This document shows positions 55,247-55,543 of a DNA stretch of 64,000 bases, in pieces. Source of the DNA: Escherichia coli (GTDB taxonomy: Bacteria; Pseudomonadota; Gammaproteobacteria; Enterobacterales; Enterobacteriaceae); assembly GCF_003018255.1 (NCBI RefSeq), contig NZ_CP027440.1. One strand, written 5' to 3'. Each line of letters begins with the position of its first letter. The stretch's first letter is position 1. Under the pieces are notes generated by a model. The model did not search any database. It was not told the origin of the DNA and saw nothing but the letters and a program-made list of their open reading frames with translations. Made by a program: the position numbers and the translations under genes.

Positions 55247-55323
55247 CGCGGGGTGGAGCAGCCTGGTAGCTCGTCGGGCTCATAACCCGAAGGTCGTCGG
55301 TTCAAATCCGGCCCCCGCAACCA
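55247..55323 (+). tRNA. metZ: Initiator tRNA-fMet (anticodon CAU), copy 1
   Basis: CGCGGGGTGGAGCAGCCTGGTAGCTCGTCGGGCTCATAACCCGAAGGTCGTCGGTTCAAATCCGGCCCCCGCAACCA, 77 nt. Confidence 0.97.
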
Positions 55324-55356
55324 ATTAAAATTTGATGAAGTAAAGCAGTACGGTGA

Positions 55357-55433
55357 CGCGGGGTGGAGCAGCCTGGTAGCTCGTCGGGCTCATAACCCGA
55401 AGGTCGTCGGTTCAAATCCGGCCCCCGCAACCA
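55357..55433 (+). tRNA. metW: Initiator tRNA-fMet (anticodon CAU), copy 2
   Basis: Identical 77-nt sequence, 110-bp tandem unit. Confidence 0.97.
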
Positions 55434-55466
55434 ATCAAAATTTGATGAAATAAAGCAGTACGGTGA

Positions 55467-55543
55467 CGCGGGGTGGAGCAGCCTGGTAGCTCGTCGGGCT
55501 CATAACCCGAAGGTCGTCGGTTCAAATCCGGCCCCCGCAACCA
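55467..55543 (+). tRNA. metV: Initiator tRNA-fMet (anticodon CAU), copy 3
   Basis: Identical 77-nt sequence; last backbone feature before the accessory region. Confidence 0.97.

Follow-up and report, generated by a model that had tools for sequence, protein, structure and literature searches.

The metZWV initiator tRNA operon of an Escherichia coli strain and the 3' end of metV as a probable attachment site of a T6SS island

Among the islands that target tRNA genes and encode P4-type tyrosine integrases are P4, which is found at leuX, and the high-pathogenicity island, which is found at asn tRNA genes. The metZWV operon of E. coli lies at 63.5 min, consists of three identical tRNAfMet1 genes and is the source of most of the initiator tRNA, the levels of which appear to follow gene copy number (PMC3017606). 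In E. coli W, a T6SS located "downstream of metV" has been named ETSS2, and the 32-kb island PAI-metV of the uropathogenic strain CFT073 is this same published island (PMC3573123, PMC2907695, PMC3032704). Here we report an analysis of a 64,000-nucleotide stretch of E. coli DNA (NZ_CP027440.1), hereafter referred to as the window, in which a tandem array of initiator tRNA genes is directly followed by T6SS genes. Both the operon and the PAI-metV/T6SS island are already known, and the annotation presented here is correct and leaves the current understanding of them unchanged. The additions are modest: the coordinates of the island together with a 41-nt direct repeat, an integrase-bearing relative in another genus, and natural arrays of one to four tRNA copies. 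We found no description of the 41-nt repeat or of the integrase-bearing relative in a literature search to which the original account of PAI-metV (Lloyd et al. 2007) was external.

When the entire 64 kb was analyzed with ARAGORN, exactly three tRNA-Met(CAT) genes were called, all of them on the + strand (Table 1), and no further tRNA genes were called in the window. The Rfam tRNA model RF00005 matches the same three sites with 61.4 bits each, well above its gathering score of 29. Likewise, Tandem Repeats Finder reports a single array at 55245-55546 with a period of 110, 2.7 copies, 98% matches, no indels and a score of 590. Direct comparison of the units reveals that the 77-nt tRNA sequences are identical in all three copies, which excludes a chance origin, and that the two 33-nt spacers differ from one another at positions 3 and 17 only. 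The initial annotation, which had described three identical 77-nt tRNA-fMet genes in 110-bp units with two differences between the 33-nt spacers, is therefore exact on each of these points, and its assignment of the genes as initiators is borne out both by tRNA gene prediction and by the initiator hallmarks that can be read on the sequence.

With respect to these hallmarks, C1 lies opposite A72 and is unpaired in the minimum-free-energy fold, such that the tRNAs of the array have no Watson-Crick 1:72 pair. The D stem (GAGC/GCTC) contains an A11:U24 pair, which is characteristic of initiators, whereas elongator tRNAs have a pyrimidine at position 11 and a purine at position 24. The anticodon is CAU, the CCA end is encoded in all three genes, and the variable loop, AGGTC, places a G at position 46, which marks the tRNAfMet1 isoacceptor. 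The anticodon stem (TCGGG/CCCGA) contains three consecutive G:C pairs, 29:41, 30:40 and 31:39, which are a conserved initiator feature (PMC3017606). All three copies are identical to metZ, metW and metV of E. coli K-12, which are labeled "tRNA-initiator Met(CAU)" in the K-12 record, and on the basis of this identity to K-12 tRNAfMet1 the encoded tRNAs would be expected to be formylated by Fmt and to be used in the ribosomal P site.

The K-12 metZWV operon (metZ b2814, metW b2815, metV b2816) has the same 77-nt genes, the same 110-bp spacing, the same G46 and the same divergent mltA gene upstream; its spacer 1 is identical to that of the window and its spacer 2 is slightly different. Judged by sequence and gene order, then, the array is the known E. 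coli metZWV operon, and the observation of it is correct and not new. Gene annotation was taken from the near-identical RefSeq record NZ_AP045067.1, in which the locus coordinate plus 33999 gives the window coordinate; a 3-kb query spanning the array has 100% identity to E. coli JNE23-011, and the 30-kb overlap contains 5 mismatches. mltA is a conserved core gene transcribed divergently from the tRNA operon, as is its K-12 counterpart, and the tandem tRNAfMet1 genes lie between mltA and amiC, the latter being the next core gene past the island. It is on this downstream side that the two strains differ: in K-12, metV is followed by a terminator and amiC, with 73 bp separating metV from amiC, whereas in the window strain an island arm and T6SS genes occupy this position.

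Table 1. Coordinates of the array, of its flanking elements and of the proximal part of the island (window coordinates unless stated otherwise).
Feature	Coordinates	Strand	Evidence or remark
mltA, murein transglycosylase A	53941-55038	-	RefSeq annotation of NZ_AP045067.1
candidate metZWV promoter: TTGCAT, 16 nt, TATAGT, then GCGC-rich discriminator	55206-55233	+	sequence reading
metZ, initiator tRNAfMet1 copy 1	55247-55323	+	ARAGORN, Rfam, identity to K-12 metZ
spacer 1, 33 nt	55324-55356	+	direct comparison
metW, initiator tRNAfMet1 copy 2	55357-55433	+	ARAGORN, Rfam, K-12 comparison
spacer 2, 33 nt, 2 positions unlike spacer 1	55434-55466	+	direct comparison
metV, initiator tRNAfMet1 copy 3; 3' end is island insertion point	55467-55543	+	ARAGORN, Rfam, repeat search
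proximal repeat copy	55530-55570	+	k-mer search and alignment
island left arm	55549-55647	+	80% identity to Entomohabitans L007 1335-1435, blastn E = 5.6e-20
putative operon terminator: AACCGCAA, 13-nt loop, TTGCGGTT, then TTTT	55563-55595	+	RNA fold
AT-rich non-coding stretch	55648-56150		Entomohabitans island has 4.5 kb with two integrase-type genes there
T6SS cluster start, window part	56175-64000	+	RefSeq annotation of NZ_AP045067.1; ORFs in window
tssB	56175-56675	+	RefSeq annotation
tssC	56734-58272	+	RefSeq annotation
tssK	58292-59629	+	RefSeq annotation
tssL	59626-60291	+	RefSeq annotation
OmpA-family gene	60304-61956	+	RefSeq annotation
hcp	62014-62505	+	RefSeq annotation
tssH	from 62697, window end inside gene	+	RefSeq annotation
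distal repeat copy	L002 27669-27709, 27.1 kb downstream, outside window		between VasL-domain gene and PTS module

Upstream of the array, a candidate promoter can be read whose putative -10 element ends 13 nt before metZ. The published primer metZWVko_fp (PMC3017606) matches 55211-55246 except for one base, and the TTGCAT-16-TATAGT element is located in the region to which promoter-down mutations, in and just upstream of the metZWV -10 box, have been mapped (PMC3017606); we regard it as the putative operon promoter. A single promoter beside mltA would thus drive three head-to-tail tRNAfMet1 genes, the dosage of which would set most of the cell's initiator tRNA level. Downstream of metV, the segment 55544-55605 folds at -17.3 kcal/mol, and the hairpin and T-run that it contains are likely to be the operon terminator, the 3' part of which would lie in the left arm of the island. 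In its loop and 3' half, this hairpin is similar to the island left arm of Entomohabitans described below, and not to the flank of E. coli genomes in which the site is empty. A generic promoter and terminator scan of 54950-56250 listed neither the metZWV promoter, because its -35 hexamer matches at only 3 of 6 positions, nor the hairpin after metV, because its 13-nt loop exceeds 8 nt.

The number of tRNA copies in the array varies from one to four among E. coli strains. Annotated records show one copy in S43 and two in RM12761; NRG 857C also has two, whereas LF82, which is of the same serotype, has three, and MFDS1022581 has four, with spacer 1 duplicated. The tRNA copies in the arrays of S43, RM12761, NRG 857C and MFDS1022581 are identical to the tRNA sequence of the window. 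Among 100 rows drawn as two evenly spaced, overlapping samples of 5425 matching genomes in public assemblies, three copies were found in 87, two in 6, one in 4 and four in 1, figures that are rough given this sampling; the remaining 2 of the 100 rows are a rearranged ST648 record. These counts are of annotated tRNA genes per row, the ranking obtained with a synthetic 5-unit query being confounded by the joining of overlapping BLAST pieces, and some of the 1- or 2-copy arrays could reflect assembly collapse. The pattern fits unequal crossing-over or slippage between the 110-bp units, and agrees with the suggestion in the initial annotation that recombination between the copies could change their number. 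Near-identical units of this kind would allow unequal crossing-over or replication slippage both to homogenize the copies and occasionally to shift their number. Since initiator tRNA levels appear to track copy number (PMC3017606), variation between one and four copies is plausibly a modest source of strain differences in the capacity and fidelity of translation initiation.

Two further observations concern individual arrays. In CFT073, metW (L107 402-478) carries a C17A change in the D loop that is present neither in the other two copies nor in the window strain, and thus the copies are not always identical within one genome; in agreement with the CFT073 change, a 2026 bioRxiv report describes a variant at one base of metW in Nissle 1917, a related strain. 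In strain ST648 (NZ_CP008697.1; L005, hit H195), the best initiator tRNA match is the metY locus, which encodes G46 as metZWV does, and the amiC match has neither the array nor the mltA flank adjoining it. This strain may have a rearranged or reduced metZWV locus.

Downstream of metV, the window strain has 27,116 bp of T6SS genes, from tssB to a VasL-domain gene, then a 5.6-kb PTS/sugar module and then amiC. The window contains the start of the T6SS cluster, which extends approximately 19 kb past the window end, such that the greater part of the island, including its far end, is beyond the window. As annotated by RefSeq, the predicted T6SS core comprises tssA-C, tssE-G, tssJ-M, hcp, vgrG and clpV/tssH in one cluster, with tssM appearing in NZ_AP045067.1 as "ImcF-related family protein," and precomputed Pfam hits in sister loci agree with this gene set. 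The 5.6-kb module encodes a phosphoglycerate dehydrogenase, a KpsF/GutQ isomerase, MalY/PatB, a PTS EIIC component and a PRD regulator. The base composition of the island is unlike that of the host: G+C content is 54.2% across the T6SS module, 31% in the junction at 55544-56174 and 40% in the PTS module, compared with 50.4% in the rest of the window, and it reaches 0.58-0.61 at 58-62 kb and 63-64 kb against approximately 0.50 in the remaining window. PAI-metV of CFT073 occupies the same position with the same gene order, tssB to VasL, then phosphoglycerate dehydrogenase to PRD regulator, then amiC. Where the islands differ is in the cargo between vgrG and tssM, which consists of a peptidoglycan-recognition-family protein and hypothetical proteins in the window strain (L002 12877-15308), of Tli3/Tle3, PAAR and a hypothetical protein in CFT073 (L107 12871-17383), and of a TseH-family gene in Entomohabitans.

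metV itself is intact, and similarity to K-12 and to empty-site genomes stops at or just past its 3' end. The proposal that the array forms an island boundary is thus upheld, insofar as it is the proximal edge of a horizontally acquired island whose T6SS genes begin directly after metV; the accompanying designation of the array as an integration hotspot applies to the 3' end of the last copy, metV, which is the insertion point, and not to the entire array. The annotation of the island in the window strain includes no integrase, excisionase or transfer genes, and that of the CFT073 island no integrase or excisionase. We therefore regard the E. coli island as an integrase-less remnant rather than as an active integrative element, and with no integrase annotated it is probably fixed.

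By k-mer search and alignment, we found a 41-nt perfect direct repeat, GGCCCCCGCAACCAATTTATTAGAATGCTGACAAACCGCAA, composed of the last 14 nt of metV and the 27 nt that follow. Its distal copy lies 27.1 kb downstream, at the distal boundary of the T6SS module, where the initial annotation had proposed to look for a partial repeat of the tRNA 3' end. Similarity between the two copies runs on through the terminator-like hairpin, the stem of which is common to both ends while the 13-nt loop is different, and CFT073 has the same 41-nt repeat. For an empty-site query, metZWV was joined in silico to the sequence past the distal fragment, and 567 complete E. coli genomes were found to contain this join without interruption. 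A base-by-base check of E2348/69 shows agreement with the distal flank at 99 of the first 100 nt downstream of metV. Genomes that lack the T6SS have flanks up to 99.8% identical to those of the window strain. Classification of the junction after metV in 5425 genomes gave 3462 of the K-12 type (metV, 73 bp, amiC), 1319 of the T6SS type and 567 of a PTS-only type, with approximately 77 outside these three types.

At the far end of the PTS module, beside amiC, we found no tRNA-derived repeat of 11 nt or more, and the module is therefore without a recognizable att scar. The published 32-kb island is thus a composite, in which a T6SS element of 27.1 kb, bounded by the tRNA-derived repeat, is inserted in front of a separate sugar-utilization module of 5.6 kb, and the boundary analysis gives the exact coordinates of the T6SS module of PAI-metV. 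In the 4-copy strain MFDS1022581 (L106 3396-3470), metV is followed by a clearly diverged terminator of the PTS type (ACACTTATGATGCTGATAAACCGCAATATGTTTCACAGATTGCGG...), indicating that the PTS-module junction exists in more than one old haplotype.

We also examined related clusters by a TssB scan of GTDB species genomes, with one genome per species and the best 80 loci kept. Among these 80 loci, the only near-identical cluster outside E. coli is that of Entomohabitans teleogrylli SCU-B244 (NZ_LLXO01000037.1), the others having TssB identities of 79% or less and no tRNA-Met nearby. The Entomohabitans TssB is 99% identical to that of the window strain, and from tssB on the cluster DNA is 94.7% identical over 6.5 kb. 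An Hcp search for the Entomohabitans contig matched only E. coli genomes, in which the protein is identical. As in E. coli, the cluster follows tandem tRNA-fMet genes beside mltA. However, this array has two copies, both identical to the E. coli tRNA sequence, separated by a 60-nt spacer, and those stretches of the mltA and tRNA-operon flank that align, which are short, are approximately 82-85% identical between the two species.

Unlike the E. coli island, the Entomohabitans island has 4.5 kb after the tRNA that contains a P4-type integrase and a second integrase-family gene. The former is a 405-aa tyrosine integrase (Arm-DNA-bind_3 + Phage_int_M + Phage_integrase) located directly after the second tRNA, and the approximately 100 nt that separate the two share 80% identity with a stretch just past metV in the window, which identifies that stretch as the island's left arm. 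For the right end, we relied on a closely related Logan assembly (L099), as the contig of the type strain (L100) ends approximately 250 bp short. There, the approximately 110 nt before the terminal fragment are approximately 97% identical to the E. coli right arm, the island stops at the same 14-nt tRNA fragment as in E. coli (GGCCCCCGCAACCA; GGCCCCCGCAACCAA), and similarity stops right after it. Both arms are thus homologous to those of the E. coli island, whereas the direct repeat in this Entomohabitans-like genome is 15 nt. The integrase segment of Entomohabitans was found at metV in 0 of 5426 E. coli genomes, in which it gave only approximately 83%-identical matches at unrelated loci. The second integrase-family gene (Integrase_1 + Phage_int_SAM_2; L007 3857-4651, - strand) lies between the P4-type integrase and tssB, and a ROS/MucR-family regulator gene lies just inside the right end of the Entomohabitans-like island (L099 15194-15742); both genes are absent from the E. 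coli island.

The metV island resembles P4-type islands in its insertion at a tRNA 3' end with restoration of the gene, in the repeat of a 3' fragment at the far end, in the exact empty site, and in having, in Entomohabitans, a relative with an integrase beside the tRNA. It is unlike them in that the E. coli copy is without an integrase, in that the tRNA contributes 14 nt to a repeat that continues for 27 nt into a terminator, and in having the final gene of a tandem initiator tRNA array as its target. Taken together with the empty site and the relative, we consider it highly probable that the 3' end of metV, within the metZWV operon, is the att site of the 27.1-kb T6SS island that forms part of PAI-metV; the island would have entered by site-specific recombination and since have lost its integrase. 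The entry would most likely have been through tyrosine-integrase recombination at a core consisting of the last 14 nt of the tRNA. Such an integration would have recreated an intact metV, left behind part of the tRNA at the distal end and supplied the tRNA operon with a terminator brought by the incoming island. Later loss of the integrase in E. coli would have fixed the island, and its removal would then require an integrase acting in trans, rare homologous recombination across the 41-nt repeat or replacement by way of homology in the flanks. Since no integrase was found in the E. coli island, or at metV in the 5426 genomes, we infer site-specific integration into E. coli from the relative.

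The most economical reading is that of an integrative element whose att core corresponds to the 3'-terminal 14 nt of tRNA-fMet; Entomohabitans would have the complete form of this element, and E. coli a form without the 4.5-kb integrase segment. The core is shared by metZ, metW and metY. One feature is at odds with a simple crossover at a 14-nt core, which does not predict a repeat that reaches 27 nt past the tRNA: in E. coli, the 27 nt directly downstream of metV agree with the native flank and not with the Entomohabitans left arm, and it is from the hairpin loop onward that the sequence matches the Entomohabitans-type island arm. The extended repeat could stem from a crossover within the similar terminators, from subsequent gene conversion or from an earlier, related insertion. 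We lean only slightly toward the more specific proposal that the PAI-metV T6SS is a domesticated, integrase-less descendant of an Entomohabitans-type element that specifically targeted the final 14 nt of genes for initiator tRNA and carried its own terminator, and that the 41-nt repeat may allow occasional precise loss. If true, this would link T6SS carriage to the initiator tRNA locus.

Several other explanations for the arrangement can be weighed against the same evidence. One is that no site-specific integration took place in E. coli, the island having spread by homologous recombination of its flanks (mltA/metZWV on one side, the PTS module and amiC on the other) and the repeats being scars inherited from an event in another species. 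The absence of an integrase from the E. coli copies, the reach of the repeat past a typical core into the terminator, and flanks in T6SS-free genomes that are nearly those of the window strain, which are compatible with allelic replacement, are all in its favor. However, it accounts for spread within E. coli and not for origin, and another genus has the same island at the same 14-nt position, in a different tRNA-fMet array and with an integrase alongside. The island DNA being 94.7% identical where the two short flank stretches that align are only about 82-85% identical, the pattern points to at least one independent site-specific insertion, and we regard spread by flank recombination without such integration in E. 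coli as unlikely. Somewhat more credible, although still the less favored reading of the junctions concerned, is that the 567 PTS-only genomes are not ancestral empty sites, their junctions having instead been produced by precise deletion of the T6SS through RecA-dependent recombination between the 41-nt repeats. Given minimal homology lengths, a perfect identity of 41 bp is long enough for rare homologous recombination; a crossover between the repeats would leave exactly the junction observed, with the distal-type loop, and very close flank haplotypes occur with and without the T6SS module. The same junction is predicted if the module was never inserted, however, and the sequence carries no polarity.

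The tRNA copies themselves have been given a role in mobility by the initial annotation, according to which recombination between the tandem copies could mobilize the adjacent island. The copies are identical, and recombination among them is evident from the arrays of one to four, but geometry rules this mechanism out: all three copies are on one side of the island, which lies wholly outside them, and a crossover between copies shifts only 110-bp units. The sole repeat that brackets the island is that of the metV 3' end and the distal fragment, no complete tRNA-fMet lies distal to the island, where only the 14-nt fragment is found, and integrase, excisionase and transfer genes are not annotated in it. 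We therefore consider such mobilization highly improbable. More improbable again, to the point of being negligible, is that the tRNA genes came in as island cargo and are not resident genes of the chromosome. Some mobile elements carry tRNA genes, and the array does abut the island. Nevertheless, the array lies beside mltA throughout the two samples of the 5425 genomes, with one rearranged exception, 3462 of these genomes have the K-12-type adjacency of metV and amiC and no island, and the similarity between the islands of the two genera starts only past the tRNA 3' end. The K-12 and E2348/69 arrangements reject a cargo origin of the tRNA genes.

The remainder of the window contains several features that are separate from the array and the island. 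ygcS, which encodes an MFS transporter (5081-6489, - strand), is annotated as a frameshifted pseudogene in the matching record. A CRISPR array annotated by RefSeq at 12560-13076, between ygcE and queE, coincides with a low-G+C stretch of 0.38-0.46, and the entire window has no annotated cas genes. The annotated genes mazG and relA (18562-21683) are separated by 95 bp that contain no other gene. The mazEF toxin-antitoxin genes of K-12 lie between relA and mazG, and the window strain thus appears to be without mazEF. The small RNA CsrB is represented by a full-length Rfam match of 381.7 bits at 32180-32539 on the - strand, between yqcC and syd. Likewise, the small RNA GcvB is represented by a full-length Rfam match of 199 bits at 50718-50923 on the + strand, divergent from gcvA as in K-12.
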